From NCBI GenBank assembly GCA_964291315.2, contig OZ219753.1:1792001-1856000 (forward strand): a DNA stretch of 64,000 bases, read 5' to 3'. Shown piece by piece: positions 12,396 through 37,421 of the stretch; within the stretch, counting starts at the first letter, position 1, and the number at the start of each line of letters is the position of its first letter. The position numbers and the translations under genes were made by a program. This DNA comes from Candidatus Poribacteria bacterium (GTDB lineage: Bacteria > Poribacteria > WGA-4E > WGA-3G). The notes beneath the pieces were generated by a model that saw nothing but the letters and a program-made list of their open reading frames with translations, searched no databases and was not told the origin of the DNA.

Positions 12396-12410
12396 ACATG
12401 CCGTATATTT

Positions 12411-17373: not shown

Positions 17374-17385
17374 TACCGGTGGCGG

Positions 17386-19269: not shown

Positions 19270-19304
19270 ATCGGTTTTTGTATCCGAACCTCTTAGGTTC
19301 CCTT

Positions 19305-19404: not shown

Positions 19405-19561
19405 GCCGGAGTAAAAACTTCTCTGTTAATATAGCATATCTCTTACCTCAACCGCAACCTCTCTACTCATTCTAAGCGGAATCTCCGAATTCCGACTCGG
19501 CACATAGAAAGTAGAAAAAGCCGAATATTTAACAGCACTAAACAATTGTCAAAAAAACCCC

Positions 19562-19590
19562 TTGATTTTTTACTAAATATATGATACACT
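19562..19590 (+). promoter_or_regulatory. Sigma70 promoter of the SBD-HNH gene
   Basis: TTGATT-17 nt-TACACT with extended TG. It overlaps the track start (19581), so the real start is 19656. Confidence 0.6.
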
Positions 19591-19655
19591 TCATTATACA
19601 TTTATACGTTCGCGATAGTTGCCCTAAATCCGCTGCTCAAAACGAGAGAACGCAA

Positions 19656-20543: not shown

Positions 20544-20991
20544 CGTTCACTATTAATCCTGTGCTGCTAGACTAAAATTTTCAACGAAAGGGAATCACCG
20601 AGCTTTTCTCCTGAAAAAATGCTTGACATAATTAGCAGTTTAAGATAAAAAAGGCAGAAAATAGGCAATCCAAATAGGATCAAATTTAATCGACAAGACG
20701 CATGAAAAATTTATACACTTACACTCCAATTAAAACCTCAAGGTTACTTAGCAAAAATTGTCGCTCCCGGCAACTTTCTAGCCTCCTAATACCCGCTGCT
20801 GCCGGTATGCTGTCGCAAACAATCACACATTACCCCCCCCACTCCACTAACGATAAGCAAACCGTCCAAAACACATCCGCGCCGCCTGCACCTACTCGCT
20901 GTTTCCTCGAACGGCAGGCGACGCTCTCTTTCGTTCTCATACTTTCCGCTGTCTGTTTCAATTTCTTACCTAGGGTCGGGAGGCATGAAAC

Positions 20992-21963
20992 GTGATTAAC
21001 ACCTCCACAATTCACCCACACATAATCAAACCCTCTTTCACAGGGCATCAGACATTTCCCTTTCGATATACATGGCTGAAGAAGGGCGTGGATGCCGTAG
21101 CAGCAGATCCAGCCATCTTTTTTTACGAAGATGCCTCTGTCACCTTAGGGGTCGGAAAGAACATGATCGGCTCCATCCGCCACTGGTGCCGGGCAGCCGG
21201 ACTCGTCAAAGAGGTTACAAGGCAGCAAGCACAACTCACTATGAACCTTAACGAGAGGCCAAGCAGTAACCGACGCGGACAATTTGTGCCTACTCAACTC
21301 GGTAAAGCTATTTTTGATAAAAGCGGGTTTGATCCCTACCTCGAAGACCCCGCAACCTTATGGCTGATCCACTGGCAGATCGCAACGAATACACAGCAAG
21401 CAACCGCATGGTATTGGGCGTTCAACATCCTAAGAAGCAACCAATTTACACCCCAGACCTTCGCAAGAGATGTCTACAAATGGGCACAACAACAAAAACA
21501 GTCTATGCCCCGCGTCTCTGAAAATACACTTCAGCGAGATGTCAACTGCTTTATCCGTACCTACTGTCAGGCACGCCACGCTCCTACCGTCATTGAGGAC
21601 ACTTTCGCCTGCCCCCTCGTCGAACTCAACTTGATCGCTGAACTACCAGACAGCGACGCTTATGAATTTCAGCGAGGCGATAAAGAGACGCTGCCGATCG
21701 AGATCGTGGCCTGGGCGCTAAATACGTTCTGGCAAAACCACTTCGCCCCGAGAGAATCACTCTCGTTCTCTGACCTGATGTACGCGCCATCAAGCCCCGG
21801 ACGAGTCTTCAGATTAGATGAGGACACAATGACCACCTATCTCGAGAACCTAGAAGAACTCACAAACGGCACATTCCAATACGATGAAACAGCAGGCCTG
21901 AAGCAGCTGTATCGACACGCAGATTTTAACGCGATGAAACTTTTAGAGAGGTACTATGGCTAA
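20992..21963 (+). CDS. DUF4007 family protein (SspB-like)
   Basis: FTGHQTFPFRYTWLKKG, LGVGKNMIGSIRHW, DPYLEDPATLWLIHW; GTG start with GGGAGG SD. Confidence 0.9.
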   Translation: MINTSTIHPHIIKPSFTGHQTFPFRYTWLKKGVDAVAADPAIFFYEDASVTLGVGKNMIGSIRHWCRAAGLVKEVTRQQAQLTMNLNERPSSNRRGQFVPTQLGKAIFDKSGFDPYLEDPATLWLIHWQIATNTQQATAWYWAFNILRSNQFTPQTFARDVYKWAQQQKQSMPRVSENTLQRDVNCFIRTYCQARHAPTVIEDTFACPLVELNLIAELPDSDAYEFQRGDKETLPIEIVAWALNTFWQNHFAPRESLSFSDLMYAPSSPGRVFRLDEDTMTTYLENLEELTNGTFQYDETAGLKQLYRHADFNAMKLLERYYG

Positions 21964-24900
21964 CCCCAGACTGTCGGAACTTTTTCACATCACGGAACGT
22001 TTCCAACGATCCATACATCTGGAACGCGATTTTTATACCGAAAACGCATTAGAGGGTTACATTCTTACCGTCAAGGCACGAGAAATTCTCACACGCCTTA
22101 TCGAAGCACAAGAGAACCACTCCACATCAAAAGCATGGTCACTCACCGGCCCCTACGGCTCCGGCAAATCCGCATTCGCGCTCTTCACCGCAAAGCTGCT
22201 CGGGAACTCCAACGCCTCCACAACGCAACAGGCCCAAGAACTGCTGAAGCAAGCGGACGTTTCACTCTACCAACGGTTCATGAGCACTCACAATAACGGC
22301 AAGAACATGTCATCAGGTTTCTGCTCCGTGCTCATCTCCGGCGAACGCGCACCCATCACACTTGCACTTCTACGCGGATTAGAGCACGGACTTAACGCTT
22401 TCAACCGAACAGCACCACACGCAACACTCCGCAGGAAAATTAGAGCCCTCTTAAAAACAGCCGAACAAGGCACACCGCCCAACGCCTCCGAAATCACCCA
22501 ACTATTTGAGAGCGCGACAGACGCTATCAGAAAAAAAGGCGGGACAGGCCTCCTTTTAATCATCGATGAACTCGGGAAATTCCTCGAATACGCTGCACAC
22601 TCGCCCGCACACGGGGACGTGTTCGTCCTCCAAACCCTCGCTGAATGCGCCACTCGTACCCAGCAGACACCGCTATTTCTACTGACCCTCCTGCATCAAT
22701 CCTTTGAACAATACGCAAACAGAATCGCAAAATCGCAGCGCGAGGAGTGGGCAAAAGTTCAAGGCAGATTCGAAGATATCGCCTTTGTAGAACCTGCAGA
22801 ACAGATACTACGACTCATCGCCTCCGCTATCCAAAATAGACCCATAGCAATAGATAAAAAACCGATTGACCCCGCTGAAATAAACCTCAAGCCCAATCAA
22901 CTTTCCGAGAATGAATTTAACCAGCTCCTACAAAATTGCCGGCCTCTCCATCCAATTGTAGCCCTTATCCTCGGTTCAATCTTCCGGCGGTTTGCACAGA
23001 ATGAACGATCCCTCTTCGCTTTTCTCAGCTCAAACGAACCTTATGGATTACAAGAATTCCTCTCAAATCAACGTTACGACGGAAACGTCTTGCCGATGCT
23101 GTCAGTCGCCGATCTATACGATTACCTCAACACCAGCATCGTACATCGACTTTACGCCTCACGCGACGGCGAAAAATGGGTGGAAATTGAGATGGCAATT
23201 CGCCGATTGACTGACCCCTCGCCAACGCTCGTTAAACTCATCAAAACCATAGGACTGCTCAATATCGTCGGAGAGGTGAGCACACATCTGAAAGCCTCAA
23301 AACCTATACTCCGTTTCGCCCTCAATGACCACACCGAAAGCTTCGAGCAGGAATTCCAGAACGCAGTGGCACTATTACAAAAACGATCCATTGTTGTCTA
23401 CCGCCGCTATAACGACATTTATACCCTCTGGGAAGGAAGCGATATCGACATTGAGGCGAAACGCCATGAAGCCGAGGGAAACCTCGACCCAAACGAAACG
23501 CTCACAACGTATCTTTCAGAACTCACACCTCCACGACCCCTCATCGCCCGTCGACATCTTTTCGAAAAAGGCACACTCCGCTATTTCACCGTCCGTTACA
23601 CCGACATTGAAGATTTCGACGCGAAACTGAACGAACCCCTAGACGGGGCAGACGGGCTTGTCCTTTACGCGCTCCCCGGAGGCGAAGATGAACTCGAGCC
23701 GTTGGTTGAAAAGGCAACTGATGCACACACCGCCCAATGCAAACAGACCCTAATTGCAATCCCACGCTCCACCCACTTTCTCCGCGAGGCTGTCACCGAG
23801 CTCGCCTGTCTACGCTGGATCTCAGAAAATACACCCGAACTCGAAGGCGACGCCGTCGCAAGACGAGAACTCGCTATCCGATGGGTAGAAGCAGAACGCG
23901 GCGTTGACAATCAACTCAATATTATCTTCAGCGGCGACACCGAAGCACCATGCAGATGGTTCCACAAAGCACATGAAGTAGACATCACATCTCAACGCAC
24001 CAGAAACGAACACTTGTCAAAAATGTGTGACGCAACCTATCATAAAACACCGCTTATTCGAAATGAACTCATTAACCGACGGAAAATCTCCGGCACCGTA
24101 ACAGCCGCTCGAAAGAAATTAATCCAAGCTATACTCGAAAAGGCGGATCAAGAAAACCTCGGCATCACCGGCTACCCTGCTGAAATGAGTATCTACCGAT
24201 CCCTCTTAGTCGAAACAGGCATACACCGTAAAACTTCCGGCATCTGGGGGTTTCACCCACCCAAACCAGATACCGATAAAACCAGCAGCACCCACACATG
24301 GCGCGCAATCGAGTCCTTCCTCGAAACGTGCGAAACCGATCGCCAACCTATCACCCAACTCTACGAAAATCTGATGGCACCTCCGTTCGGACTTCGAGAA
24401 GGCCTACTGCCAATTCTGCTCTGCACCGTAATGCAGCATTACAAAACAGAAATCGCACTCTATGAAAACGGATCCTTTATAGCCGACTGGTCAATGCCCG
24501 TCTTTGAAAGACTGCTGAAAATACCACACCAATTCGAACTGAAACGGTTTCGGATGACAGGCATCCGTTCCGAGCTGTTCACACAATTCGCAGAAACGTT
24601 CAACCACGCAACAACATCCGAAAACCCACAGCTATTAACAGTCATCAAACTGCTCATGCGCGCTATAGCACAACTACCGAAATACACGCTGACAACACAA
24701 GAATTGAGTGATAATGCAAAAAATCTCCGCAGAATCGTCCTGAACGCCCGTGAACCCGACGCACTCCTCTTTAAACAATTGCCCGAAACGTTCGGATTCC
24801 CCGCTTTTAGCACGGAAATGCCAACAGACGCAAAGGTCATTTCAGATTTTCTCAGCACACTGAAAAACGCACTCGCCGACTTGCAGCGCGCCTACGAACG

Positions 24901-25450
24901 CCTACTGAACCTTGTAGAGCAGACCCTAGTAAGGGCGTTCAACCTAACACCGACACCGGAAGAACTCCGCAACGCCCTCGTCGCCCGAGCCGAACCTCTA
25001 TTACCGATAACGATTGAAACCGATCTCAAAGGCTTCTTAATCCAAATCTGTAGCAGCGGACACGACTTCACGAACTGGATCGAGGCAATCGCCACCTATC
25101 TCGCTAAAAAACCGCCAGCCTCATGGATAGATACCGACAGGGCACAATTTGAAATCAACCTTTCTCAACTCGCGAGGAAGTTCCGGCATTTCGAAGCAAT
25201 CGCCTACGAAAAGCGAGCACATACCGATCCAACCGCAGGCGAACCCATTCGAGTCGGTATCACCGCACCAAACCAAACCGAGCAAGAACGCGTGGTTACC
25301 TTGACCGCAACTGCTGATGAACAAACAACTGAAATGGAACACGACATCCGAAAAGTTTTTGACAAATTCAATGTAGACGATAACCCTGAACTTCATATCG
25401 CAATCCTTGCACGAATTTCACAAAAATGGATACGACAACTCGACGAATAG
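21956..25450 (+). CDS. Large P-loop ATPase (SspC/BrxC-like)
   Basis: RFQRSIHLERD, Walker A GPYGSGKS, Walker B LLIIDELGKFLE, EWAKVQGRF, FAQNERSLFAFL; overlaps the DUF4007 stop. Confidence 0.85.
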   Translation: MANPRLSELFHITERFQRSIHLERDFYTENALEGYILTVKAREILTRLIEAQENHSTSKAWSLTGPYGSGKSAFALFTAKLLGNSNASTTQQAQELLKQADVSLYQRFMSTHNNGKNMSSGFCSVLISGERAPITLALLRGLEHGLNAFNRTAPHATLRRKIRALLKTAEQGTPPNASEITQLFESATDAIRKKGGTGLLLIIDELGKFLEYAAHSPAHGDVFVLQTLAECATRTQQTPLFLLTLLHQSFEQYANRIAKSQREEWAKVQGRFEDIAFVEPAEQILRLIASAIQNRPIAIDKKPIDPAEINLKPNQLSENEFNQLLQNCRPLHPIVALILGSIFRRFAQNERSLFAFLSSNEPYGLQEFLSNQRYDGNVLPMLSVADLYDYLNTSIVHRLYASRDGEKWVEIEMAIRRLTDPSPTLVKLIKTIGLLNIVGEVSTHLKASKPILRFALNDHTESFEQEFQNAVALLQKRSIVVYRRYNDIYTLWEGSDIDIEAKRHEAEGNLDPNETLTTYLSELTPPRPLIARRHLFEKGTLRYFTVRYTDIEDFDAKLNEPLDGADGLVLYALPGGEDELEPLVEKATDAHTAQCKQTLIAIPRSTHFLREAVTELACLRWISENTPELEGDAVARRELAIRWVEAERGVDNQLNIIFSGDTEAPCRWFHKAHEVDITSQRTRNEHLSKMCDATYHKTPLIRNELINRRKISGTVTAARKKLIQAILEKADQENLGITGYPAEMSIYRSLLVETGIHRKTSGIWGFHPPKPDTDKTSSTHTWRAIESFLETCETDRQPITQLYENLMAPPFGLREGLLPILLCTVMQHYKTEIALYENGSFIADWSMPVFERLLKIPHQFELKRFRMTGIRSELFTQFAETFNHATTSENPQLLTVIKLLMRAIAQLPKYTLTTQELSDNAKNLRRIVLNAREPDALLFKQLPETFGFPAFSTEMPTDAKVISDFLSTLKNALADLQRAYERLLNLVEQTLVRAFNLTPTPEELRNALVARAEPLLPITIETDLKGFLIQICSSGHDFTNWIEAIATYLAKKPPASWIDTDRAQFEINLSQLARKFRHFEAIAYEKRAHTDPTAGEPIRVGITAPNQTEQERVVTLTATADEQTTEMEHDIRKVFDKFNVDDNPELHIAILARISQKWIRQLDE

Positions 25451-25462
25451 AGAGGTCAAACT

Positions 25463-26299
25463 ATGGAACAAGAAACCCGTCATCTGCTGGGGCTCTCCGG
25501 CGGAAAAGATAGCTCCGCACTCGCAGTCTACATGCGCGACAGAGTACCAGAGATGGAATATTTCTTCTCTGATACCGGCAAAGAGCTCCCCGAAACATAT
25601 GAATTCTTAGACCGATTAGAGGCGTTCCTCGGCAAACCGATCGTCCGCCTCAACATGAACCCTGATGCCAGTCAGAACAGAGACTTCGATCACTGGTTGA
25701 AACTTTACGGCGGACTCCTGCCGTCCTCACAAGTGCGATGGTGCACCGTTAACCTCAAAATCAAACCTTTTGAGGAATACGTCGGCGAAGACAGGGCATA
25801 CCACTACATCGCCATCCGCGCCGATGAAGACCGCATCGGCTACAAACCGCCCAAAGTGTCCGCAATCCATAACATTGAACCCAAATACCCCTTCAAAGAG
25901 GACGGCATCACCAAAGAAGACGTCTACCGAATCCTCGAGGAAAGCGGGGTCGGACTCCCCACGTATTACGACTGGCGCACACGCTCAGGCTGCTACTTCT
26001 GCTTCTTCCAGCGCAAATCCGAATGGGTCGGACTCTTAGAGCAGCACCCTGACCTCTTCGAACTCGCAAAATCGTATGAGAAATTCAACACCGAAACAGG
26101 CGAACGATTCACATGGTGCCAAGGCGAAAGCCTAGAGGAACTGTCAGCACCAGAACGAATCGCACAAATCAAAGCAAACACCGAAAAAGCGAAAGCCTCT
26201 AAGAGAGCCGCAAAACCGAATCAGCGACTGATAGAGATACTCACCGATGTCTATGACGATGAAGATGACGAGGAACCCTGTCTCATCTGTCATAAGTGA
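25463..26299 (+). CDS. PAPS reductase family protein (SspD/DndC-like)
   Basis: PP-loop SGGKDS, DTGKELPE, RWCT, RSGCYFCFFQ, C-terminal CLICH. Confidence 0.9.
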   Translation: MEQETRHLLGLSGGKDSSALAVYMRDRVPEMEYFFSDTGKELPETYEFLDRLEAFLGKPIVRLNMNPDASQNRDFDHWLKLYGGLLPSSQVRWCTVNLKIKPFEEYVGEDRAYHYIAIRADEDRIGYKPPKVSAIHNIEPKYPFKEDGITKEDVYRILEESGVGLPTYYDWRTRSGCYFCFFQRKSEWVGLLEQHPDLFELAKSYEKFNTETGERFTWCQGESLEELSAPERIAQIKANTEKAKASKRAAKPNQRLIEILTDVYDDEDDEEPCLICHK

Positions 26300-26344
26300 C
26301 ATCAAATAAAATGCTACCCTATTTAGGAGGAAACAAACAATGGG

Positions 26345-28444
26345 ATGACACTTCGGGCAATACCCGATATTCGACCCCTTTATATACTGCCAAAGGACCC
26401 CGCTATAGAGGAGGTCCTAATTCCATGCTTTCAATCCGCAGGCTCTGTTGATTGCATGATGGGCTTCTTTTCGAGCGAAATTCTGGTGTCGCTTGCACCA
26501 GGTCTAGCAACCTTCATTAATAGCGCAGAGGGGAAGCTGCGCCTAATTATCAGTCCGCTGCTCCGAACCGAAGACAGAGACGCAATAGCCAACGGAATAG
26601 CCTCGCCTGAAGATATCGCGAACGCAACTCTGGAAAACTTTGTTGTTACCGAAAACGCCATCGCACAACATACGTTGAAATGTCTCTCGTGGATGTTACG
26701 TTCCGGACGCTTGGAAATCAAAATCGTCTTGATGAAAGATGCCCTTTTCCATCCGAAAGTCTGGCTCTTTCGCCGGGGGGACGACGTAATAGCAGCACAC
26801 GGATCCAGCAACATGACATACGCCGGCGTCCAGAAGAATATCGAGCAAATGTCCATCTCTAAATCGTGGGCGGACACGAATCAACAATACATCGCAGAGA
26901 AACTTTGTGACCAATTTAGAGAACTCTGGGGAAATCAAGATACCAATTGTACTGTCGTTTCAATCCCGGAAGCACTGAAGGAAAATCTATTGAGCACTTA
27001 TAATCCAGTCCTCCCACCAACTGAAGAAGAATTTCATACGCTTCGCGAGCAGGCTTGCGACCTTGACAGAGACAGATCGTCGCGCCCCACATTCACTATA
27101 CCCCGACACCTTCGATTTGAGGAGGGGCCTTTTGAACATCAAGGACGAGCCGTTAAAGCATGGTGTGAAGCCGGCCATCAAGGCGTTTTGGAAATGGCAA
27201 CCGGCTCAGGAAAAACAGTCACCGCTATGATTTGCACACACCGACTCTACAGTGTGGAGAAACCACTTCTAGTCGTTGTGTCCGCGCCTTACATCCCCCT
27301 TATTCAACAGTGGTGTGATGAAATTTCACCCTTCGGACTCAAGGCGGTTAACCTATCTGAAGCAAGCGGGGCAAGAAAACGAGCCGCCAAGCTTAAAAAA
27401 ATAGAGCGGAGACTCCGATTCGGCAGGAGCAGCATCGAAATTGTCGTCGTTTCTCACCGCACACTTTGCAGTAGCGAGTTTAAAGATGAACTCGAAAAAT
27501 TTGATTTTAAAACGCTGCTTATCGCCGATGAAGTCCACAACCTCGGCAGCGAGGGATTCATAGCGAATCCTCCTGACTTCTTTGACCACAGATTAGGATT
27601 ATCTGCTACCCCAATTCGGCAGTACGATGAGGAAGGAACCGAGCAGCTGTTCGCCTTTTTCGGCCCTATCGTTTTCCAATTCACCCTTGAGGAAGCAATC
27701 GGGCGATGTCTCGTTGAATACGAATACTACGTCCATACAGTAAAACTCACAGAAGATGAAATGGAGAAATGGTACGCACTCACAGAACAGATCAAGAAAA
27801 ACGCTTGGCGACAAGAAGGTGAAGACAGTGAAGATGAGTACCTTATGAAGCTCCTACGAGACCGACGCGCACTCTTAGAAAACGCGGAAAATAAGATTGA
27901 TGCCTTGGAAAAAGTTTTGAGACCCAAAGATCTCCAAAGGCTCCGATACACCCTGATTTATACCTCTGCTACAGGACCGCAGCAGCTCGAAGATGTCAAC
28001 GCCCTACTGAACGAACACAGCGTACTCTTCCATCAACTGACACATAAAGAAGCAAGAAACCGTAAGAAAACCGCACAGATTCTCCAAGACTTCCGAGAGG
28101 GAACGTTGAAGATCCTAACCGCGAAACGCGTGCTTGATGAAGGCGTGAACATCCCAGAAATTGAGAGGGCTTTCATCCTCGCCAGCACCACAGTAGAGCG
28201 ACAATGGGTTCAGCGGCGCGGCAGGCTGCTCCGCACATGTCGCGAAACCGGTAAAACGCACAGTGAAATCCACGACTTCATCGCCTTGCCGCCCGATTTG
28301 GACAACATAGACGACAGGGCCCGTAGGTTAGTAGAATCCGAACTCAAGCGAGTACGAGCATTTGCTTACCTCGCAAAAAACTTTGGCAGACCTGATGGCC
28401 CCTTAAACCACCTCGACCAACTGGTTAAAATCCTTTATACATAG
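26345..28444 (+). CDS. PLD-nuclease + SF2 (ResIII/DEAH) helicase fusion (PbeA-like, PT-associated restriction enzyme)
   Basis: FHPKVWLF...HGSSNMT (HKD-type); MATGSGKT, IADEVHN, GLSATP, LDEGVNIP, QRRGRLLR. Confidence 0.88.
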   Translation: MTLRAIPDIRPLYILPKDPAIEEVLIPCFQSAGSVDCMMGFFSSEILVSLAPGLATFINSAEGKLRLIISPLLRTEDRDAIANGIASPEDIANATLENFVVTENAIAQHTLKCLSWMLRSGRLEIKIVLMKDALFHPKVWLFRRGDDVIAAHGSSNMTYAGVQKNIEQMSISKSWADTNQQYIAEKLCDQFRELWGNQDTNCTVVSIPEALKENLLSTYNPVLPPTEEEFHTLREQACDLDRDRSSRPTFTIPRHLRFEEGPFEHQGRAVKAWCEAGHQGVLEMATGSGKTVTAMICTHRLYSVEKPLLVVVSAPYIPLIQQWCDEISPFGLKAVNLSEASGARKRAAKLKKIERRLRFGRSSIEIVVVSHRTLCSSEFKDELEKFDFKTLLIADEVHNLGSEGFIANPPDFFDHRLGLSATPIRQYDEEGTEQLFAFFGPIVFQFTLEEAIGRCLVEYEYYVHTVKLTEDEMEKWYALTEQIKKNAWRQEGEDSEDEYLMKLLRDRRALLENAENKIDALEKVLRPKDLQRLRYTLIYTSATGPQQLEDVNALLNEHSVLFHQLTHKEARNRKKTAQILQDFREGTLKILTAKRVLDEGVNIPEIERAFILASTTVERQWVQRRGRLLRTCRETGKTHSEIHDFIALPPDLDNIDDRARRLVESELKRVRAFAYLAKNFGRPDGPLNHLDQLVKILYT

Positions 28445-28455
28445 CGGAGGATACT

Positions 28456-28698
28456 ATGTCATATAACGCAGAAAAAATGGGAAAACTGATTGAAGACGCA
28501 TGTCAATCTGTTGAAAACAGATCTAACGGCTACAAGAGAAAAGTTATTGATGCCATAGTCGAAATTCTTGAGGCCGAGCGAGACCATAAAACCCGAAGAA
28601 CAAACATCCAGAAAAAAGTAAATGAAGTGTGCCATAGCACGGGTGACTTTCTCATGAAAGAACGCGATATAGATAACCCCAACAATGGAGGCTGCTAA
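28456..28698 (+). CDS. Small helical protein (PbeB-like)
   Basis: 80 aa, strong GGAGG SD, abuts the next ATG; position between helicase and ATPase. Confidence 0.7.
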   Translation: MSYNAEKMGKLIEDACQSVENRSNGYKRKVIDAIVEILEAERDHKTRRTNIQKKVNEVCHSTGDFLMKERDIDNPNNGGC

Positions 28699-30798
28699 AT
28701 GAAGTTAATCAGCGCAAAATTTCAAAACTTTCGCCTGCTACGAGATCTAGAGTTGGAGTTCTCGACAAGTGACGACAAAAAACTAACTGTAATTCGAGCG
28801 TCGAATGAAAGCGGAAAAACGACTATCTTAAACGGGCTTCAGTGGGCCCTCTACGGTGATGACGTGTTACCGAATAGAGGTAGAGGATACCGAATGTTCC
28901 CAATCGATTGGAAGAGCTCCGACGGAGGGGCAATCCCGATATCTGTGCAAGTTGATTTCGAGAAAACAACCTCTCGATATCGTCTTATCCGATCGGTGGA
29001 GGAGACAACAGACGGACACAGACAAAATTCGAAGGTAGAATTGTTTGAATTAGCAGAAACCGGGGCTAACCGCATTAATCCACCAGAAGCACAGATCGCT
29101 CGACTGTTGTTACCTCTGAATTTGCGCGAGGTGTTTTTCACCGACGGAGACCGAGCTCTGAATTTCATTGAAGCAGACTCTCAAACAGATAAACGTGGGC
29201 GGATCCAAGGAGCCATTCAATCTCTGTTAGGACTTGATGTGATTGATACTACCTTCAAACATTTAAAAAGGACAATTTCTGGGCTCAATAAAGACTCGAG
29301 GAATATCGGACCTGATACAGATCTCAGCCAAATTGTTACAGAATTGGAGGAGATAAATAAAAATATCGAACACCTTGAAGATAAAGTAGACGATGCGAAA
29401 CAGCAATTCGAGGCAATAGGACACAGTTTGGCAGATATCGATAGGGACATTGAAGCCGCACTGGTTAAGGGAGACCAAGAGGATCTTAATCGTAGGCTGA
29501 AAAGAACTGAAACAGAACTGGATGATCTCGAAAACCAAGAAAAAGAATTGGAAACCGAACACTCACAGCTGTTCAGAAAACCGCTCTTATTCCGAGAGCT
29601 GCTCACACCGGTTTTAGAACAAAGTTTCAAGAAATTGGATGAACTGCGCGATCAAGGGAAACTTCCGAGTCCGACTATTCCCGTACTTGTAGAACGACTC
29701 GCAGGGGTTACATGTATCTGTGGCGAATCATTGGACCAACACTCAGAAAGCGGGAAACAACGTAGAGAGCATATTGAACGCCTCATTAAGGAAAGTGAGA
29801 AGGCAGATGACCTCCAAAAATGCCTTACCGATCTCGATTACGGTTCATTGGAACTGAAACCAATAAAGAACGCCCATAACGACTCCTGGATCGATGAATA
29901 CAGTAAGGTGTCAACGCTTCATCATGAACTTGAAACGAAACGCGAGGAATTAGAAAAGGAACTCGCAGCACTTGAAGTTCAACTGGAAGGCATAGGAAAT
30001 ACCGATATTCAAAAACTTCGCACTACCAAACAGGAACACACTATCCAACGCGAAAGTCTGAACAACACCCGTATAGAGCGTGAAAGAGAACTCGAACGCC
30101 TAAAGGAACGGAGCAGATCCTTGACAGCAACACGTAATAACCTTCTAGCTCAGCAAAGAAAAGGGGCGCTGATACTAGCAAGATTAGATGCGACGCGCGA
30201 CATACAGCAGATCCTCGAAAACGCCTACAACCACATCGTAAACGAAGAATTGCAAAAAGTGAGTCAGCTGATGAACACCCTCTTCCTCGAAATGATTGGC
30301 GCGGATGCCGAACAAGGAGCAATCATTCAGAAAGCAGAGATTAGTGAAGATTTTGATATCCTCGTCTATGGCCCGAGTAAGCGCCCTTTGAACCCTGATA
30401 AAGATTTAAATGGTGCCTCTCGGCGCGCACTCACCACCGCATTTATTCTCGCTCTCACTAACGTAAGCGAAGTGGAGGCACCAAATGTGATTGACACACC
30501 GCTTGGAATGATGGATGGGTATGTCAAACGCTCTGTTCTCAAAACCGCCATCAAAGAAAGTTCACAGCTTATTCTCTTTCTAACGCGTTCTGAAATTAAA
30601 GACTGTGAGGATATTATAAAGAACGAGGCAGAATGTGTGACAACCATTACAAATTCCGCACATTACCCCAATATATTGGTGAACGATCCACATATAAACG
30701 AACCTCAGGCGTTCCGATGTGAGTGCCAGGATCTCGGCGAATGCAAAATGTGTAAGAGGCGAACCGATGTTGAGGTAGAAATCCAAACGGAAACTTAG
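28699..30798 (+). CDS. DndD/SbcC-like coiled-coil ABC ATPase with CxC hook (PbeC-like)
   Basis: FQNFR, Walker A NESGKTT, FFTDGD, coiled coils with central CICG, signature LNGASR, VIDTPLGMMD, C-terminal CEC...CKMC. Confidence 0.88.
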   Translation: MKLISAKFQNFRLLRDLELEFSTSDDKKLTVIRASNESGKTTILNGLQWALYGDDVLPNRGRGYRMFPIDWKSSDGGAIPISVQVDFEKTTSRYRLIRSVEETTDGHRQNSKVELFELAETGANRINPPEAQIARLLLPLNLREVFFTDGDRALNFIEADSQTDKRGRIQGAIQSLLGLDVIDTTFKHLKRTISGLNKDSRNIGPDTDLSQIVTELEEINKNIEHLEDKVDDAKQQFEAIGHSLADIDRDIEAALVKGDQEDLNRRLKRTETELDDLENQEKELETEHSQLFRKPLLFRELLTPVLEQSFKKLDELRDQGKLPSPTIPVLVERLAGVTCICGESLDQHSESGKQRREHIERLIKESEKADDLQKCLTDLDYGSLELKPIKNAHNDSWIDEYSKVSTLHHELETKREELEKELAALEVQLEGIGNTDIQKLRTTKQEHTIQRESLNNTRIERERELERLKERSRSLTATRNNLLAQQRKGALILARLDATRDIQQILENAYNHIVNEELQKVSQLMNTLFLEMIGADAEQGAIIQKAEISEDFDILVYGPSKRPLNPDKDLNGASRRALTTAFILALTNVSEVEAPNVIDTPLGMMDGYVKRSVLKTAIKESSQLILFLTRSEIKDCEDIIKNEAECVTTITNSAHYPNILVNDPHINEPQAFRCECQDLGECKMCKRRTDVEVEIQTET

Positions 30799-30807
30799 GA
30801 GATTGAT

Positions 30808-31311
30808 ATGGCACAACAATACAACAACCCTTTTTTAAATATGAGTGTTGTTTCACTTGCTACACAGCGACACCACTACGACCGTTACTGCCAAGCAGGA
30901 CAGAAACATATAGTGGATATGAGTCCATTTCCCAGGAAGGTAGACTTCTGGTTTGCAGCACTAGCATTGGCAGCACGTAAGAATCTCAAACCTATCGATT
31001 TAACGAAAGAGAAAACTGTTAACATTATTAGTGGCGATATTTTTAACACCGACGGCTGGCAGGCACAAGCCATAATGTTAATTGCAACAGCCGTCAAAGG
31101 GGATTTAAAGATCGTTCTCGAGCCAAGCCAAATGATGAAGATTGCTAACGGACTCGCAGCCGCAGGCGTTCCACACATTGTGAAAATGCTAGATGCAGGA
31201 CCCTCAAAACCGAGATGGAACCTCTCCGATGAACTCGCAGAACTGCTGCAATCTGATGCTGTTACCGAGGTAAAATCGGATCATCAACGACTCGCGGAAG
31301 CCCTGCGATGA
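30808..31311 (+). CDS. Hypothetical protein (PbeD/DndE-position)
   Basis: 167 aa, AGGAG SD, last gene of the tightly packed operon; no motif recognised with certainty. Confidence 0.7.
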   Translation: MAQQYNNPFLNMSVVSLATQRHHYDRYCQAGQKHIVDMSPFPRKVDFWFAALALAARKNLKPIDLTKEKTVNIISGDIFNTDGWQAQAIMLIATAVKGDLKIVLEPSQMMKIANGLAAAGVPHIVKMLDAGPSKPRWNLSDELAELLQSDAVTEVKSDHQRLAEALR

Positions 31312-31499
31312 TTCTATAACCGCACCGAAAATACCCAAAATATGGGATAATTGAGGGTTTTCGGCTCGGTAATGATATAACGCCCTCTTTGTGATGATAA
31401 CTGAGGCCGCTAGTGCCTCGGGAGTTTCCAACTTCGCGAAATCATTATTAAACAGAAAACTCTCCTTTTTTGATGCTCGGCACGAAACTCTGAATCAAC

Positions 31500-33956
31500 A
31501 TGAACACAAAGCAACTTTTCGACCAACTTTATCGATCTAAAACCGAAGACGATGTCGATCGAGTCATCAACGCACATCCGGACATTTTCGAAGCCGATAA
31601 AAACTGGCATCCCCTCGGGGGCAACGAAAACAACTTCGGTGTCATCGAAAATCAACAATCAACACCGATTGCAGCTTTGATTGAAAAGATCACAAACGCT
31701 ATTGATGCCGTTTTAATGAAAAAATGTCTGGAAGCAGGCATCGATCCCAAATCCAAGCAAGCTCCCAGCTCAATGGAAGAAGCCAAAGTCAAATTTTTTG
31801 CAAATCACAGAGATTGGGATCTCCCACGAACCCGAAAACAACAAGCAGAAAATATCCAAATTATCGCTGACGGCCCAAGGCTGAAACCTTCTTTGATTAT
31901 TTATGACGACGGTGAAGGGCAACACCCAGAAGAATTTGAGAAAACGTTCTTGTCATTATTGGGCGGCAATAAGACAGAGATCCACTTTGTCCAAGGCAAA
32001 TACAACATGGGCGGGAGCGGCGCTATTGTGTTCTGTGGCAAAAAACGATACCAACTCATCGGTTCTAAGCGATATGATAATACAGGCAAATTTGGATTCA
32101 CCCTAATCAGAGAACATCCGCTCACCGAAACAGAACAAACGGTTAAGAGAAATACATGGTATGAATACCTGAAAATCGGTGGCGTAATTCCATCTTTCCA
32201 CGCTGAACAGCAAAGCCTGGGGCTCTATAATAGAACATTTACCACCGGGACAATTATTAAACTGTACTCCTACGATTTGCCACCCGGAATCCGATCGGTT
32301 ATTTCCAGAGACCTGAATCAAGGCATCAACGAGTACCTGTTTGAACCCATTTTACCGGTGATTACTGTTGATAAAAAAGAACGTTACCCCGACGATCTAA
32401 ACCTTGAAAGAGACGTATACGGACTCAAACGCAGATTAGAACGGGAAGATAACAGGTACATTGAAGAAGCTTTTTCCGAAGATTTCAACGACACGCTTTT
32501 TGGAAAAATGAAGGTGACCTGTTATCTCTTCAAAACGAAAATAGATGCTCAATCTGTTAAAGAGAGTAAAGGTACAATTCGGAGAGAATTTTTTAAGAAC
32601 AACATGTCCATCCTATTTTCGATCAACGGACAGGTTCATGGACACTACACCTCAGAATTCATAACCCGATCTCTCAAATTGAATCTACTTAAAGAGCATC
32701 TTCTCATTCATGTCGATTGCACAAACATGAACTACGATTTCCGTAAAGAGTTATTCATGGCATCTCGAGACCGTTTAAAAAGCGGCGAGGAAAATAATGC
32801 CTTACGAAAGTTATTAGCAGACAAACTCGGAGCGAAAAATGGACGCTTGCAGCAAATACAGAAACAACGTAAAGATTCAATCGCGGTAGAAAGTGAAGGG
32901 GCGAAAGACTTAATAAAATCTTTCGCACGGAATTTTTCACGAAATCCAGAATTGTTGAAGCTGTTGGATCAAACGTTAAATTTCGACCTACCTCTTAAAA
33001 CGAACCAAAGCGCGAAAACCAACACGGCAACCAAACGAAATAAGATGGAGCAAGAACGCTTTAATCCAAAGCGATTCCCCGCACTTTTCAAACGCCGGAT
33101 ACAAGGCAAAAAAGATAAAGAGGTCGTTATAATACCGCTTGGCGACGAAAAAACAATTCTCTTTGACACGGACGTTGAGAACAACTATTTTGATCGTACA
33201 GAAGAACCTGGCGAATTGAAAATCGCCATTCTTGGTTTCAAAGAAAATGATACGGAAGACGGAAACGCCCCAGGAGAAGCGGATCAGATTGAAAATGTAT
33301 TCAATGTGCGAAAAAGCAGCCCCCAGAACGGAACAATCAAGCTCCACCTCAATCCAAAGGAGGCGGTAAACGTTGGGGATGAAGTAAAGATCAAAGTTAG
33401 CTTGGAAGATCCAACCGGCGGGGAATTTAAGGAAATATTTTGGGTAAAGATCACTGAGAAGAAAGCCCCCACACAGCCTTCACCGAAACCTGAAAAAAAG
33501 GAAACCCCAACCTTAGGATTGCCTGAGTTAATATACGCCTATAAAGAAGAAAAACCAGATAGAGAAGGTGTATCTTGGGAAAAATTTGAGGAGAACACCA
33601 CTAAACAGATGGATTACAATACCGTGATGCAACCTATAGCAGAAGGTGAGAAGTTAGAGCGTGTTTATATCAACATGGACAGTAAGGTTTTGAAAAACCT
33701 CAGAGCCAAAACCAGAAACCCCAGTCAGGAGCAATTAGAGACAACTAATAAAAGGTACATCGCCGCTGTATATTCCCACACGCTGTTTTTGTACGCAATC
33801 ACCAAAGCACATAAATACGGAATTGTGAAAGAGGAAAACGGCACAGATTCCGATGTGGAATTAGACATTTACCTCAAAGACCTCTTCGACTCTTACTACG
33901 CAGAATTCCTTCTGAACTACGGTTTCGATGAAATCATGCAATTGTTAGAAGACTAA
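31500..33956 (+). CDS. GHKL (MORC/MutL-like) ATPase domain protein
   Basis: Bergerat-fold motifs EKITNAIDA, IYDDGEGQ, QGKYNMGGSG, GTIIK; long uncharacterised C-terminus. Confidence 0.8.
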   Translation: MNTKQLFDQLYRSKTEDDVDRVINAHPDIFEADKNWHPLGGNENNFGVIENQQSTPIAALIEKITNAIDAVLMKKCLEAGIDPKSKQAPSSMEEAKVKFFANHRDWDLPRTRKQQAENIQIIADGPRLKPSLIIYDDGEGQHPEEFEKTFLSLLGGNKTEIHFVQGKYNMGGSGAIVFCGKKRYQLIGSKRYDNTGKFGFTLIREHPLTETEQTVKRNTWYEYLKIGGVIPSFHAEQQSLGLYNRTFTTGTIIKLYSYDLPPGIRSVISRDLNQGINEYLFEPILPVITVDKKERYPDDLNLERDVYGLKRRLEREDNRYIEEAFSEDFNDTLFGKMKVTCYLFKTKIDAQSVKESKGTIRREFFKNNMSILFSINGQVHGHYTSEFITRSLKLNLLKEHLLIHVDCTNMNYDFRKELFMASRDRLKSGEENNALRKLLADKLGAKNGRLQQIQKQRKDSIAVESEGAKDLIKSFARNFSRNPELLKLLDQTLNFDLPLKTNQSAKTNTATKRNKMEQERFNPKRFPALFKRRIQGKKDKEVVIIPLGDEKTILFDTDVENNYFDRTEEPGELKIAILGFKENDTEDGNAPGEADQIENVFNVRKSSPQNGTIKLHLNPKEAVNVGDEVKIKVSLEDPTGGEFKEIFWVKITEKKAPTQPSPKPEKKETPTLGLPELIYAYKEEKPDREGVSWEKFEENTTKQMDYNTVMQPIAEGEKLERVYINMDSKVLKNLRAKTRNPSQEQLETTNKRYIAAVYSHTLFLYAITKAHKYGIVKEENGTDSDVELDIYLKDLFDSYYAEFLLNYGFDEIMQLLED

Positions 33957-34133
33957 CCTCCCGAACAAAGCATTAACACTACTTTTCCGCAAGCAAAATA
34001 AACCTTGCCCCCAACTATCATAAATGCCCTACCCCACCCTAATTCTTGCACACACAAAATTCCCCTTGTAATTCCACACGACTCCGTGTACGATAAAATA
34101 CTGTTTTTATACCCTCAACGACGGAGGAAATAG

Positions 34134-37100
34134 ATGCCCCATCTCAACATCAAGCCTATGCATAAACCTATCAAAACTTACTACGCCGAACTTGAAAAAT
34201 ACGCACAACTCGGTGAGCAAAATGAAGGCACTGTCCGTGCAGCCTTCCAACACCTGCTCCAACACTACTGCCACCAAGCCAAACTTACACTGCTCTGCGA
34301 AAAAACACACTACACACCCGAGAAAAAACGCATAATCCCGGACGGGGAAGTCGTGGACACCTACGGACTACCGCACGGCTACTGGGAAGCAAAAGATACA
34401 CACGATGACCTGCTCCTCGAGGCTGCCAAGAAGTTTGACGCAGGCTACCCCTCCAAGAACATCGTCGTGCAGTCGCCCACACGCGCCCTGCTTTATCAGG
34501 ACGGGCAGCTGCAGCTCGACGCCGACATCACTGATCCGTGCAACCTCGTTCAGGTGCTCCAAACCTTCTTTGCGTATCAGGAGGCAAACATCGCCGCGTG
34601 GCACACCGCTGTCGCTGATTTCAAGGAAGCCGTGCCCGCACTCGGAGCGAAGTTAGTGAGGCTCATCGAGACCGAGCGTCGAGACAACGTGCGGTTTCAA
34701 GAGGCGTTCCACCAGTTCCATGTGCAGTGCTGTGCCTCCATCAACCCGGGTCTCTCCATTGCTGCTGTGGAGGAGATGCTGATCCAACATCTCCTCACCG
34801 AACGCATCTTCCGCACGGTGTTTGATAACCCTGACTTCACGCGCCGGAATATCATCGCCCGGGAAATAGAAAACGTCATAGATGTGCTGACGGAACGGAC
34901 GTTGAACCGGTCGGAGTTTCTTCGTCCTTACGACCCGTTCTACGCGGCGATAGAGAGCACCGCTGCGACCCTCACAGCGTTCTCACAGAAGCAGCACTTC
35001 CTCAACACCGTCTACGAGCAGTTCTTTCAAGGGTTCTCCGTCAAGGTTGCCGACACGCACGGCATCGTCTACACGCCGCAGCCGATCGTGGATTTCATGG
35101 TCAACAGCGTGCAACATCTATTAGAGACCGAGTTTGATCGTTCGTTATCGGATAGCGGTGTGCATATCATAGACCCGTTTGTCGGCACGGGCAACTTCAT
35201 CGTGCGGTTGATGCAGGTCCTGGATCCGATCTCTCTGGAGCGAAAATACACCGCCGATCCGCCTGAACTCCAGTGTAACGAGGTGATGCTGTTGCCGTAT
35301 TACATTGCGAGTCTGAATATTGAGCAGCAGTTTTACACTGTGACGCGCCGGTATTCGGCTTATGAGGGCATCTGCCTTGTAGATACGTTTGAGGTATCGG
35401 AGGCTCGGCAGATGGCGCTGTTCGCGCCGGGGAACACGGAGCGGGTTGAGCAGCAGAAGCGGACGCCGATGTTCGTAGTGATCGGCAATCCGCCGTATAA
35501 TGCGGGTCAGAAGAGAGAGAGCGACAACAACAAGAATAGGAAGCACCCGATCGTAGATGCGAGAGTTGCGGAGACGTATGTCAAAGGCTCTGCAGCACGG
35601 AACCCCAATAAGCTCTACGATCCGTATGTGAAGGCGATCCGGTGGGCCTCCGATCGTATTGGAGAGGAGGGCGTTGTGGCACTGGTAACGAATAACAGCT
35701 TTTTGGACGGCATCGCGTTTGATGGGGTGCGAAAGCACCTTGCGGCAGACTTCGATGCCCTCTACGTTCTCGACTTAGGCGGAAATGTGCAGCGCGGATT
35801 AAAGGTCTCTAAAGCGAATGTATTCAACATTCGGATAGGGGTGAGTATCAATCTATTCGTGAAAAACAGAGACAGGTCATCAGAGCAGCCGCGTATCTTT
35901 TATTATCGCACGGATGAGTTGTGGGATAGAGATCAGAAGTTTGCGTTTCTGAATAAATGTCAGCATGTGGGCGGTGTTGCGTGGCAGTCCATTGAACCCG
36001 ATGCGCGGCACGCGTGGCTAACCGAAGGGCTGGCACCTGAGTTTGAGACCTTTCTTCCGATAGGGACTAAGGCATCAAAGACGGCAAAAAATGAGGTACA
36101 AGATGTCTTTTTTAAAACCTACAGCAATGGTGTGCAAACGGCTCGCGATGCGTGGGCTTACAATTTCAACCGAGACGCACTCACTGAAAATATAAGCAGG
36201 ATGATTGAAAATTACAACGCAGAAGTCGCGCGTTGGACACAACGAACAAATAGGGAGGCGGCCGTTGATAATTTTCTGATTTCCGATGCCACGAAGATCA
36301 AGTGGAGTTCGACGTTAAAGCGGAAGCTACAGAGCGGTCAGAACACAGCATTTACAGAGGCAAATATCCGTTCCAGCCTTTATCGCCCCTTTACGAAATC
36401 CAACCTCTACTTTGACCGAATGATGAACCATAGGGTAGGAGGCTTTCCATCTATCTTCCCCACCCCAGAGACTGAATCAGAAAATTGGGTCATTTGCGTC
36501 AGCGTGACACTAGAAAAACCCTTTACTTGTTTGATGACTGCTTGTATTCCTGAATTTGTAGTAACGGGCGGGTTTGGATCACCAACCCAATGCTTTCCAT
36601 TCTACACCTATGACGAAGACGGCGCAAATCGCCGCGAAAATATCACCGATTGGGCATTGACAGAATTTCGATCTCATTACAAAGACGACAACATCAGCAA
36701 GTGGGACATCTTCCACTATACCTATGGGCTCCTGCATCATCTAGACTACCAAAAGAAATACGAGGCGAACCTCAAGCGCGATCTGCCGCACATCCCCTTC
36801 GCCACAGACTTCTGGGCGTTTGCTACCGCAGGCGCGCAACTCGCAGAGCTCCACGCTAACTACGAATCTCAACCCGAATATGAAGAGCTCAAGTTGATTC
36901 AGAACCCCGAGGTGCCGCTTAACTGGCGCGTGGAGAAGATGAAACTCTCCAAAGACAGAACACAGTTGACATATAACGACTTCTTGACACTTGCCGACAT
37001 CCCGCCCGAAGTGTTTGCGTATCGGTTAGGCACTCGTTCGGCGTTGGAGTGGGTGATAGATCAATATCGCGTCAAAAGGGACAAGTGGAGTGGGCTGGTC

Positions 37101-37214
37101 AGCGATCCGAATTGTGCGGAGGCACCGCGCTATATTGTGGAGTTAATTGGCAAGGTAATTACGGTGAGTTTAGAGACGGTGGCAATCGTTGAGAAGCTGC
37201 CACCGATACCGTAG
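34134..37214 (+). CDS. Type IIG / ISP-like restriction-modification enzyme (REase + m6A MTase + TRD, no helicase)
   Basis: PDG...YWEAKD (PD-D/ExK), GIVYTPQPIVDF, DPFVGTGNF, IGNPPYN, LYRPFTK, ISP-type C-terminus (DIFHYTYGLLH...SALEWVIDQY). Confidence 0.9.
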   Translation: MPHLNIKPMHKPIKTYYAELEKYAQLGEQNEGTVRAAFQHLLQHYCHQAKLTLLCEKTHYTPEKKRIIPDGEVVDTYGLPHGYWEAKDTHDDLLLEAAKKFDAGYPSKNIVVQSPTRALLYQDGQLQLDADITDPCNLVQVLQTFFAYQEANIAAWHTAVADFKEAVPALGAKLVRLIETERRDNVRFQEAFHQFHVQCCASINPGLSIAAVEEMLIQHLLTERIFRTVFDNPDFTRRNIIAREIENVIDVLTERTLNRSEFLRPYDPFYAAIESTAATLTAFSQKQHFLNTVYEQFFQGFSVKVADTHGIVYTPQPIVDFMVNSVQHLLETEFDRSLSDSGVHIIDPFVGTGNFIVRLMQVLDPISLERKYTADPPELQCNEVMLLPYYIASLNIEQQFYTVTRRYSAYEGICLVDTFEVSEARQMALFAPGNTERVEQQKRTPMFVVIGNPPYNAGQKRESDNNKNRKHPIVDARVAETYVKGSAARNPNKLYDPYVKAIRWASDRIGEEGVVALVTNNSFLDGIAFDGVRKHLAADFDALYVLDLGGNVQRGLKVSKANVFNIRIGVSINLFVKNRDRSSEQPRIFYYRTDELWDRDQKFAFLNKCQHVGGVAWQSIEPDARHAWLTEGLAPEFETFLPIGTKASKTAKNEVQDVFFKTYSNGVQTARDAWAYNFNRDALTENISRMIENYNAEVARWTQRTNREAAVDNFLISDATKIKWSSTLKRKLQSGQNTAFTEANIRSSLYRPFTKSNLYFDRMMNHRVGGFPSIFPTPETESENWVICVSVTLEKPFTCLMTACIPEFVVTGGFGSPTQCFPFYTYDEDGANRRENITDWALTEFRSHYKDDNISKWDIFHYTYGLLHHLDYQKKYEANLKRDLPHIPFATDFWAFATAGAQLAELHANYESQPEYEELKLIQNPEVPLNWRVEKMKLSKDRTQLTYNDFLTLADIPPEVFAYRLGTRSALEWVIDQYRVKRDKWSGLVSDPNCAEAPRYIVELIGKVITVSLETVAIVEKLPPIP

Positions 37215-37283
37215 GCAACTTTACGCGCGATCCCCTCTTTTTCCCGCTATAGCAACGCCTGAGCAAGATAACCGCTGCTCACC

Positions 37284-37312
37284 TTGACTTCGCCACCACA
37301 ATATGATAAACT
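37284..37312 (+). promoter_or_regulatory. Sigma70 promoter
   Basis: TTGACT-17 nt-TAAACT with extended TG. Confidence 0.6.
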
Positions 37313-37421
37313 ATACTAAATTTCTATACTTCACTTCACACCGCACTGATACGTAGGAAACCGCGCCAACAGACGCGGCGAAAGCACAGAAAACTTCTTG
37401 AAAAACTAGGCAAAACACATT

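Follow-up and report, generated by a model that had tools for sequence, protein, structure and literature searches.

A PbeABCD module with a CxC-type ATPase joined to an Ssp-type phosphorothioate writer in Candidatus Poribacteria

The 64-kb window analysed here (Candidatus Poribacteria bacterium, contig OZ219753.1, positions 1,792,001 to 1,856,000) carries at 26345-31311 a four-gene locus that family profiles and motif alignments confirmed as an intact PbeABCD module joined to an Ssp-type DNA-sulfur writer. The module is probably complete and functional, is centred on an ATP-binding cassette (ABC) ATPase of the CxC clade, and would represent a distinct clade linked to the Ssp rather than the Dnd writer, serving as the effector arm of an Ssp-based phosphorothioate (PT) system. 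This reading is supported by family membership and intact motifs, by the operon-like arrangement of the genes after sspD, and by a link to Ssp that recurs in many phyla. The Ssp-Pbe pairing is itself a conserved unit, with SspD found in 56 of 67 loci.

Of the PT-linked effectors, PbeABCD is the most poorly understood. In its sole experimental study, protection came with no DNA cleavage that could be seen, and comparative work published later cast doubt on whether PT is read at all. The Ssp machine differs from Dnd and reportedly marks only one DNA strand. Whether Pbe senses backbone sulfur can be tested independently with a Pbe clade that is consistently tied to Ssp. Plasmids of cultured strains carry members of the clade too and so provide bacterial, clonable versions, and its specific Cys cluster and conserved PbeB are handles for mutagenesis and structure work. 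Its distribution among sponge symbionts is a further sign of the heavy exchange of defence genes in that community.

The PbeABCD module and its writer

All coordinates are positions within the window, and all module genes lie on the + strand. The module consists of four packed open reading frames (ORFs) of 699, 80, 699 and 167 amino acids (aa), the ends of which coincide exactly with 26345 and 31311. From sspD to pbeD, the genes are separated by 45, 11, 0 and 9 nucleotides (nt). Upstream, sspB (DUF4007), sspC and sspD (3'-phosphoadenosine-5'-phosphosulfate (PAPS) reductase-like) form the single cluster that characterises an Ssp writer, with an 8-nt overlap between sspB and sspC and a 12-nt gap between sspC and sspD. 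The features are as follows.

20992-26299, +: sspB, sspC and sspD, phosphorothioate writer (PADLOC SspB 330, SspC 1118 and SspD 388 bits; Pfam DUF4007 and PAPS_reduct)
26300-26344, +: sspD-pbeA spacer, 45 nt, with a purine-rich stretch ahead of the ATG; aligned with the spacers of relatives
26345-28444, +: pbeA, HKD (phospholipase D (PLD)-type) nuclease fused to an XPB/Rad25-like superfamily 2 (SF2) helicase, 699 aa (PADLOC PbeA PDLC02707, 670 bits, residues 13-679)
26750-26812, +: PbeA HKD active-site motif H136-x-K138 ... G153-S-S-N156 (H136, K138, S154 and N156 in 69/69 sequences; G153 in 68/69)
27203-27217, +: PbeA helicase motif I, GSGKT, residues 287-291 (G287, G289, K290 and T291 in 69/69; S288 in 68/69)
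27527-27538, +: PbeA helicase motif II, DEVH, residues 395-398 (D395, E396 and H398 in 69/69)
28456-28698, +: pbeB, 80 aa, its stop abutting the pbeC start codon (assigned by position; homologue in the same place in 63 loci)
28699-30798, +: pbeC, coiled-coil ABC ATPase of the CxC (zinc-hook) clade, 699 aa (PADLOC PbeC 200.8 bits; Pfam AAA_23)
28798-28821, +: PbeC Walker A, A34-S-N-E-S-G-K-T41 (A34, N36, G39, K40 and T41 in 66/66)
29713-29724, +: CxC hook C339-I-C341-G342, in the middle of PbeC (C339 and C341 in 66/66 loci and in 116/116 full-length representatives of 50% clusters)
30718-30753, +: C-terminal Cys cluster of PbeC, C674-x-C676-x5-C682-x2-C685 (64-65/66 loci; 115/116 representatives by pattern)
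30808-31311, +: pbeD, 167 aa, putative DndE-like DNA-binding partner (by position, size and predicted fold)

As a comparison set, one genome per species was scanned with two conserved PbeA peptides, which yielded 80 loci (L numbers below). Conservation was counted over 69 aligned sequences for PbeA (the window and 68 loci) and over 66 for PbeC. A first-pass annotation of the window had described a PbeABCD-like PLD-helicase effector with intact HxK/GSxN and SF2 motifs, an ATPase with a CICG hook and an extra C-terminal Cys cluster, and two small partner genes. The Pbe profile scores bear out this assignment, every one of the motifs was located, and both small ORFs are in place.

PbeA has the HKD nuclease fused to an SF2 helicase that is expected of a PbeABCD system. 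The Pfam PLDc_2 match (residues 112-195, 26.3 bits) falls just below the cut-off of 27, and ResIII, DEAD and Helicase_C also match. The sequences nearest to its motor among solved structures are XPBII and Rad25, and helicase motifs III (SAT, 420-422) and VI (Q-x-x-G-R, 623-627) are present as well. Against TIGR04095 (dnd_restrict_1, DNA phosphorothioation system restriction enzyme), PbeA scored 379.5 bits, below the cut-off of 600, with only the helicase part (252-687) aligned. Among 7999 candidate proteins scored, 2954 were related to PbeA at E <= 1e-10, and the best 120 were 74-79% identical to it. One locus (L070, 9941-12087) has a PbeA split in two.

The second large protein, PbeC, matched 69 PADLOC profiles, of which the best 25 were all PbeC or DndD. 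Its DndD scores were 123 bits in PADLOC and 121.2 bits for TIGR03185 (cut-off 245.85), and those for Rad50 and SbcC models (46 and 24 bits) were far under the cut-offs. By alignment, it is about equally similar to DndD (23% over 93%) and to a Dnd-linked PbeC (22% over 95%). A search of PDB sequences with its profile gave no match at E <= 1e-3. In addition to Walker A, it contains a signature-like N571-G-A-S-R-R and a Walker B I598-D599-T-P (D599 in 66/66). The coiled-coil ABC ATPase with a CxC hook that belongs to PbeABCD is thereby present, and the sequence position of the hook suggests its placement at the apex. According to excerpts of Rakesh et al. (PMC10853773), the CxC clade is sister to DndD and has a Rad50-like zinc hook and no hinge; papers cited here by PMC number are represented by such excerpts. 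The first-pass annotation had called this protein an SMC/DndD-like ATPase comparable to the Lamassu and Wadjet sensors. The relation to DndD holds for the CxC clade, but the protein is not a structural maintenance of chromosomes (SMC) ATPase of the Lamassu/Wadjet kind: the Pfam scan returned no SMC hinge family, neither a hinge nor a kleisin-like partner was found, and no Lamassu or Wadjet profile was among the best 25 of the 69 PADLOC matches.

The C-terminal cysteines distinguish this PbeC from others. The cluster was found in nearly all of the 116 full-length representatives, which were drawn from the best 150 PbeC matches and are 28-48% identical. The misses among the loci are L041 and L045, both with diverged PbeC tails (altered C termini at ~12350-14500). 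Among seven plasmid PbeC proteins of other contexts, the CxC hook occurs in 7/7, whereas the C-terminal cluster occurs only in L081, a member of the window's clade. The PbeC of the Dnd-linked (two), methylase-linked (two) and unlinked (one) plasmids lack it, as does the other Ssp-linked clade. The CxC-x5-CxxC cluster therefore marks the window's PbeC clade. It is not mentioned in the passages of Rakesh et al. that deal with the Zn-hook, Zn-ribbon and cysteines (PMC10853773).

In Pfam, PADLOC and NCBIfam, neither of the two small proteins matched a family at E <= 0.01, save for an ATP-cone match of PbeB at chance level. PbeB occupies the position of the small ORF between pbeA and pbeC that is part of PbeABCD. 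Whereas the PbeB of the family at large is described as 'rapidly evolving, mostly disordered', that of the window's clade is conserved (mean column identity 59% over 64 sequences) and predicted, with modest confidence, to be helical: AlphaFold2 (AF2) gave three helices with a predicted local distance difference test score (pLDDT) of 69 and a predicted template modelling score (pTM) of 0.31. In PbeABCD systems the ATPase gene is followed by that of a DndE cognate with two ribbon-helix-helix repeats, a place and size that PbeD fits. Its AF2 model is confident (pLDDT 86, pTM 0.79) and contains two strand-helix-helix units followed by C-terminal helices. In a Foldseek search with this model, DndE chains 5wtu and 4lrv had the top probabilities listed (0.38-0.41; 7x4e, 0.10), with E-values of 1.4-4.2 and no hit at E <= 0.001. 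Superposition on these three chains was compact, with template modelling (TM) scores of 0.39-0.52 (target-normalised) and root-mean-square deviations of 3.4-5.1 Å over 76-89 columns. TIGR04062 (dnd_assoc_4) was the NCBIfam family most often matched by PbeD homologues (6/60, best E 0.0034), while hhalign of PbeD against two dnd_assoc_4 proteins gave E-values of 0.06-0.09, which are not significant. PbeD had no PDB sequence match better than E 0.9, no Pfam match and no tblastn match to dnd_assoc_4 proteins. On the basis of the model, PbeD is plausibly a cognate of DndE.

Ssp linkage and the history of the join

SspD linkage was scored within the stored flanks (10 kb) of the 67 loci that contain at least 90% of PbeA. 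Of the 56 loci with SspD, 33 have the gene upstream on the same strand, as in the window; where it lies downstream, it is convergent in 20 loci and co-directional with the module in three. The 80 loci span 12 named phyla, the largest groups being 23 from Candidatus Poribacteria and 21 from Pseudomonadota, with several from Latescibacterota, Binatota and Acidobacteriota, and are mostly from metagenome-assembled genomes. Many of these lineages are sponge-associated. In the tree, the window's own copy falls inside the Poribacteria clade. Since sspBCD is present in ~3% of reference genomes (PMC12914056), the Ssp linkage lies far above background.

The dndC and dndD genes that adjoin the module in DndCDEA-PbeABCD systems were not found here, the writer of the window being SspBCD. 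When the Dnd proteins of one Dnd-linked plasmid were searched against the 80 loci, a DndC-like match of at least 50% coverage was obtained in a single locus (L041), DndD matched at PbeC only, and DndE gave no match. Within the window, DndC matched over just a quarter of its length, on sspD, DndD matched only on pbeC, and DndE matched nothing. The exceptional L041, which has no Ssp, encodes at 15339-17774 (-) an 811-aa protein with a DndC-like PAPS-reductase domain in its C-terminal half, adjoining a GmrSD_N/DUF262-like gene and an HNH gene. The writer is often shared with further effectors: L039 has PbeABCD, then SspE (691 bits), then a convergent SspDCB, and SspE-like genes were found in eight loci. 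In L054 (15060-22102), SspE is broken into three ORFs, the first two of which are separated by an unrelated ORF on the opposite strand.

Plasmids extend this picture. Of seven plasmid contexts of PbeA homologues, two were Ssp-linked, two Dnd-linked and two methyltransferase-linked, and one had no obvious partner. On the Sphingomonadaceae plasmid CP099618.1 (48% identity), the genes overlap one another and run sspA-B-C-D-pbeA-B-C-D, annotated as cysteine desulfurase, DUF4007, large ATPase, PAPS reductase, helicase, 74-aa ORF, AAA ATPase and 148-aa ORF. A Rhizobium indigoferae plasmid (strain CIP 108029, 30% identity) has pbeB-C-D-A facing sspD-C-B-A. Two of the scanned loci also come from cultured carriers, Rubellimicrobium mesophilum DSM 19309 (L070) and Sphingomonas sp. 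2R-10 (L074). In RefSeq, Dnd-linked PbeA is named 'DNA phosphorothioation system restriction enzyme' and the corresponding PbeD 'DNA phosphorothioation-associated protein 4'. Ssp-linked PbeA is named 'DEAD/DEAH box helicase', in agreement with the score of the window's PbeA below the 600-bit cut-off of TIGR04095; PbeD is 'hypothetical' in CP099618.1 and carries the protein 4 name in Rhizobium.

The first-pass annotation had noted that the module is more A/T-rich and has fewer C-ending codons than 20992-26299. This was borne out by codon third positions (chi-square for SspBCD vs PbeABCD 64.7, p = 6e-14). The G+C content at third positions (GC3) is 0.556/0.520/0.599 in SspB/C/D and 0.503/0.407/0.434/0.423 in PbeA/B/C/D, and the fraction of C-ending codons is 0.355/0.378/0.437 and 0.314/0.284/0.230/0.232, respectively. 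From SspB to PbeD, a single change point fits best at 26200 (log-likelihood ratio 34.5), which lies ~150 nt away from the sspD/pbeA junction; the ratio at 26347 is 32.5, and the maximum of 200 permutations was 11.4. Halves of single genes were alike (SspC, p = 0.53; PbeA, p = 0.32), and the composition of PbeA is intermediate (p = 4e-4 vs Ssp; p = 3.5e-3 vs PbeBCD). The annotation had named a lack of similarity to Pbe/Dnd proteins and the absence of a break near 26300 as findings that would speak against it; both were looked for and neither was observed. Across the whole window, third positions show a strong strand asymmetry, with + genes mostly favouring C over G endings (e.g. 0.47 vs 0.15) and - genes the reverse. 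This skew is present in sspBCD and nearly missing in pbeC and pbeD.

The same step was seen in relatives. Its sign (Ssp > Pbe) was shared by 16 of 18 Poribacteria-clade loci, whereas just 10 of the other 23 loci had it, with extremes of -0.20 (L019) and +0.14 (L062). The window's 45-nt spacer can be aligned with those of L002, L004, L006, L016, L030, L055, L073 and L075 (33-44 nt); L001 and L005 carry insertions. Because the spacer aligns across Poribacteria loci and the sign of the step is common to most of them, the join is old and inherited rather than recent in the window's genome. Deeper in the trees, the histories of writer and effector diverge. In the PbeA+PbeC tree, the Poribacteria clade has as its sister two Latescibacterota loci, L013 and L068 (support 100), whereas in the SspC+SspD tree they lie on a distant branch with L019 and L053. 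The proposal of a separately acquired effector grafted onto an Ssp-like writer therefore stands as to separate histories, given the conflicting trees, with the refinement that the join is not a recent event, given the inherited spacer and GC3 step, and not a one-off. 'Separately acquired' is right if taken to mean exchangeable modules, whose pairing is repeatedly kept or re-formed.

Relation to known systems, proposed working and alternatives

The module most resembles DndCDEA-PbeABCD of Haloterrigena jeotgali A29 (Xiong et al.), with which it shares the four-gene order of HKD-SF2 protein, small protein, CxC-hook ABC ATPase and ~150-aa partner, and an adjoining PT writer. It differs from that system in its writer, which is SspBCD (ORC/Cdc6-like ATPase, triple winged helix-turn-helix SspB) and not DndCDE(A). 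Compared with Dnd-linked plasmid copies, its PbeA is only ~30% identical, its PbeC has the extra C-terminal cluster, and its PbeD does not reach the dnd_assoc_4 model. The writer family is the one coupled directly to an effector module in SspABCD-SspE and SspABCD-SspFGH (PMC9646914, PMC8092258), and several effectors can share one writer, as in L039, but the effector of the window is neither SspE (DUF262-DUF1524) nor SspFGH. SspFGH was considered as an alias of Pbe and rejected, as SspH is FtsK-like and no homology is reported in the excerpts. The PbeC-PbeD pair recalls DndD-DndE, in which a coiled-coil ABC ATPase is followed directly by the gene of a small DNA-binding partner; TIGR03185 matched PbeC partially, and DndE chains were returned for the PbeD model. 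Unlike DndD, PbeC scores below the DndD cut-off, has the CxC hook (absent from DndD per Rakesh et al., PMC10853773) and stands in an effector, not a writer, context. With Rad50/SbcC, Lamassu and Wadjet, it shares an ABC head split by a coiled coil, an apex cysteine hook as in Rad50 and the idea of ATP-driven DNA scanning, but it has no hinge and no kleisin-like gene, and its coiled coil would be about half the SMC length (Rakesh et al., PMC10853773).

The literature contains the parts of this system. Xiong et al. (2019) counted 320 of 553 PbeAC pairs with no dndCD nearby (PMC6459918); since that work predates Ssp, some of the 320 may be Ssp-Pbe pairings. In excerpts of a 2025 review, three restriction branches are given and the Ssp-Pbe pairing is not among them (PMC12707154). 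A literature search found no paper that pairs Ssp with Pbe; earlier comparative work or its supplements may already mention the pairing or the C-terminal cysteines. In the passages found to name both sspBCD and pbe, they are listed side by side only, and the search found nothing on phosphorothioate in Poribacteria. We could not find the combination described in print, although the locus type is already visible in RefSeq.

By family membership, SspBCD together with a cysteine desulfurase encoded elsewhere would write PT marks on host DNA. A hook-joined PbeC dimer and the DndE-like PbeD may, as the analogy to DndD-DndE and Rad50 suggests, bind and scan DNA in an ATP-dependent manner and so read whether it is modified. 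Unmarked DNA would then license PbeA, the XPB-like motor translocating and the HKD site nicking or cutting, or replication would be blocked. PbeB, which is conserved, predicted to be helical and encoded directly ahead of pbeC with no gap, might speculatively be an adaptor or a brake. In the archaeal Dnd-linked prototype, virus resistance needs all four pbe genes and the PT mark (PMC6459918). With the further prototype findings given below (no visible cleavage, no toxicity when the writer is lost), this makes a PT-sensing mode like that of SspE as likely as classical restriction. A broader proposal is offered tentatively: SspBCD-PbeABCD may be a distinct, widely transferred PT defence system in which the Cys-cluster PbeC, with a second four-Cys, probably zinc-binding, site, and the divergent DndE-like PbeD read the sparse single-strand marks of Ssp; it may be especially common in sponge symbionts and often stacked with SspE, PT-binding HNH or GHKL ATPases around one writer.

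Several observations weigh against the module being the effector arm of an Ssp-based PT system. Ssp-linked Pbe modules are known so far from their genes. SspD is missing in 11 of the 67 loci; the flanks are short in five of these and extend ~10 kb to either side in the other six, and the linkage counts hold for the window's PbeA clade, from which both search peptides come. Neither a cysteine desulfurase (SspA) nor an SspE homologue was found anywhere in the 64-kb window; IscS can stand in for sspA (PMC8092258). The link of PbeD to DndE is below significance by every measure used. The archaeal prototype showed no cleavage of viral DNA and no toxicity when its writer was lost (PMC6459918), so a classical restriction model fits poorly. 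Finally, on 20 rows, each module's data reject the grouping obtained with the other (approximately unbiased (AU) test, p = 3e-5 for the Pbe grouping on Ssp data and p = 2e-6 for the Ssp grouping on Pbe data), for groups that were named post hoc from the trees and involve long branches; the conflicting trees and the difference in composition suggest that writer and effector are exchangeable and might work independently.

One alternative is that PbeABCD is autonomous and blind to PT, lies beside sspBCD only by way of defence islands, and may act by cleavage of self-DNA (abortive infection) once a phage factor removes the PbeB inhibitor. CxC systems with no PT writer at all are known, and a suicide model with PbeB as negative regulator has been proposed (Rakesh et al., PMC10853773). 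The six full-flank loci without SspD, the plasmid contexts with methylases (2/7) or nothing obvious (1/7), the discordant trees with the compositional step, and the location of the window's copy in a defence island (HNH enzyme, GHKL ATPase, Type ISP-like gene) are in line with it. Nevertheless, we regard it as unlikely: SspD accompanies most of the loci in three arrangements and many phyla, far above the genome frequency of sspBCD, the genes overlap or lie within 45 nt of each other with a conserved junction spacer, and the prototype needed PT for protection (PMC6459918).

An improbable alternative is that PbeC and PbeD serve the writer, as a DndD-DndE-like pair that selects or marks sites for SspBCD or another modification, with PbeA as a separate add-on nuclease. 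It draws on the about equal similarity of PbeC to DndD and to a Dnd-linked PbeC, on the lack of DndE in Ssp systems, and on the suggestion that an ABC-DndE pair may trigger modification or signal its status (Rakesh et al., PMC10853773). However, IscS-SspBCD alone sufficed for PT modification in E. coli (PMC8092258), and the four pbe genes stay together whatever the arrangement, even where they are convergent with ssp as a separate transcription unit. That the module is a decaying or silent remnant is hardly credible. Its composition is unlike that of its neighbours and promoter and terminator signals are no higher than in shuffled sequence, but none of the four ORFs is truncated or disrupted, no catalytic residue has been lost, and broken copies look different, as the altered PbeC tails of L041 and L045 and the split PbeA of L070 illustrate. 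An effector joined to the Ssp writer remains the reading that we favour.

Genes around the module

One further PT-related gene lies 5' of sspB.

19581-20543, +: phosphorothioate-DNA-binding HNH restriction endonuclease (NCBIfam NF045808, 322 bits, cut-off 180)

Among the Poribacteria loci with full PbeA, 13 have a homologue of it (at least 50% coverage), which lies 5' of sspB in 12 and 3' of the module in L055. A PT-DNA-binding nuclease thus adjoins a PT writer, and reading of the host's own marks and of foreign marks are both conceivable. The gap between this gene and sspB is filled by orf97 (20702-20995, +, 97 aa), which overlaps the sspB start. It has no family match in Pfam, PADLOC or NCBIfam and no homologue among the 80 loci, and is therefore doubtful as a gene. 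A scan of 19000-37500 gave 17 promoter sites (20.5 expected from shuffled sequence) and 25 terminator sites (23.1 expected), with no clear excess.

The stretch of ~19.5-37.2 kb has a lower G+C content than its flanks and a Type ISP-like gene at its end, and so is a defence island. Next after pbeD lies a gene for a GHKL-type ATPase of 818 aa (31500-33956, +), with a weak Pfam HATPase_c_3 match and HATPase-like proteins of ~800 aa as the nearest Atlas clusters. Unrelated GHKL proteins occupy the same place elsewhere: 16 loci encode a 790-aa protein with HATPase_c_3 and HATPase_c, together with a 632-aa partner, and four encode a 668-aa HATPase_c protein (examples of post-pbeD GHKL genes: L038, 15095-19362; L025, 15053-17059; L062, 6552-9002). 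Pairwise similarity among the three types is limited to an N-box-like motif. The 818-aa protein was considered as a conserved fifth Pbe gene and rejected, as its own homologue occurs in 1 of 80 loci (L062) and it has no pairwise similarity to the other post-pbeD GHKL proteins. GHKL genes in this place may reflect chance in defence islands or a recurrent accessory.

The Type ISP-like protein (34134-37214, +) has coupler, methylase and specificity domains and aligns to positions 732-1636 of a 1646-position full-length profile, and so is without the nuclease-helicase half. Partial homologues lie 0.7-3 kb 3' of pbeD in L073 and L001, so the GHKL gene of the window may be an insertion between pbeD and the Type ISP gene. 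Further upstream, a solitary HmaB-type DUF1156 adenine methylase gene (12698-15484, +; PADLOC 896 bits) has no adjoining Hma partner gene. Its third positions are without strand skew (C3 0.325, G3 0.307), unlike those of its neighbours, which suggests a recent arrival.

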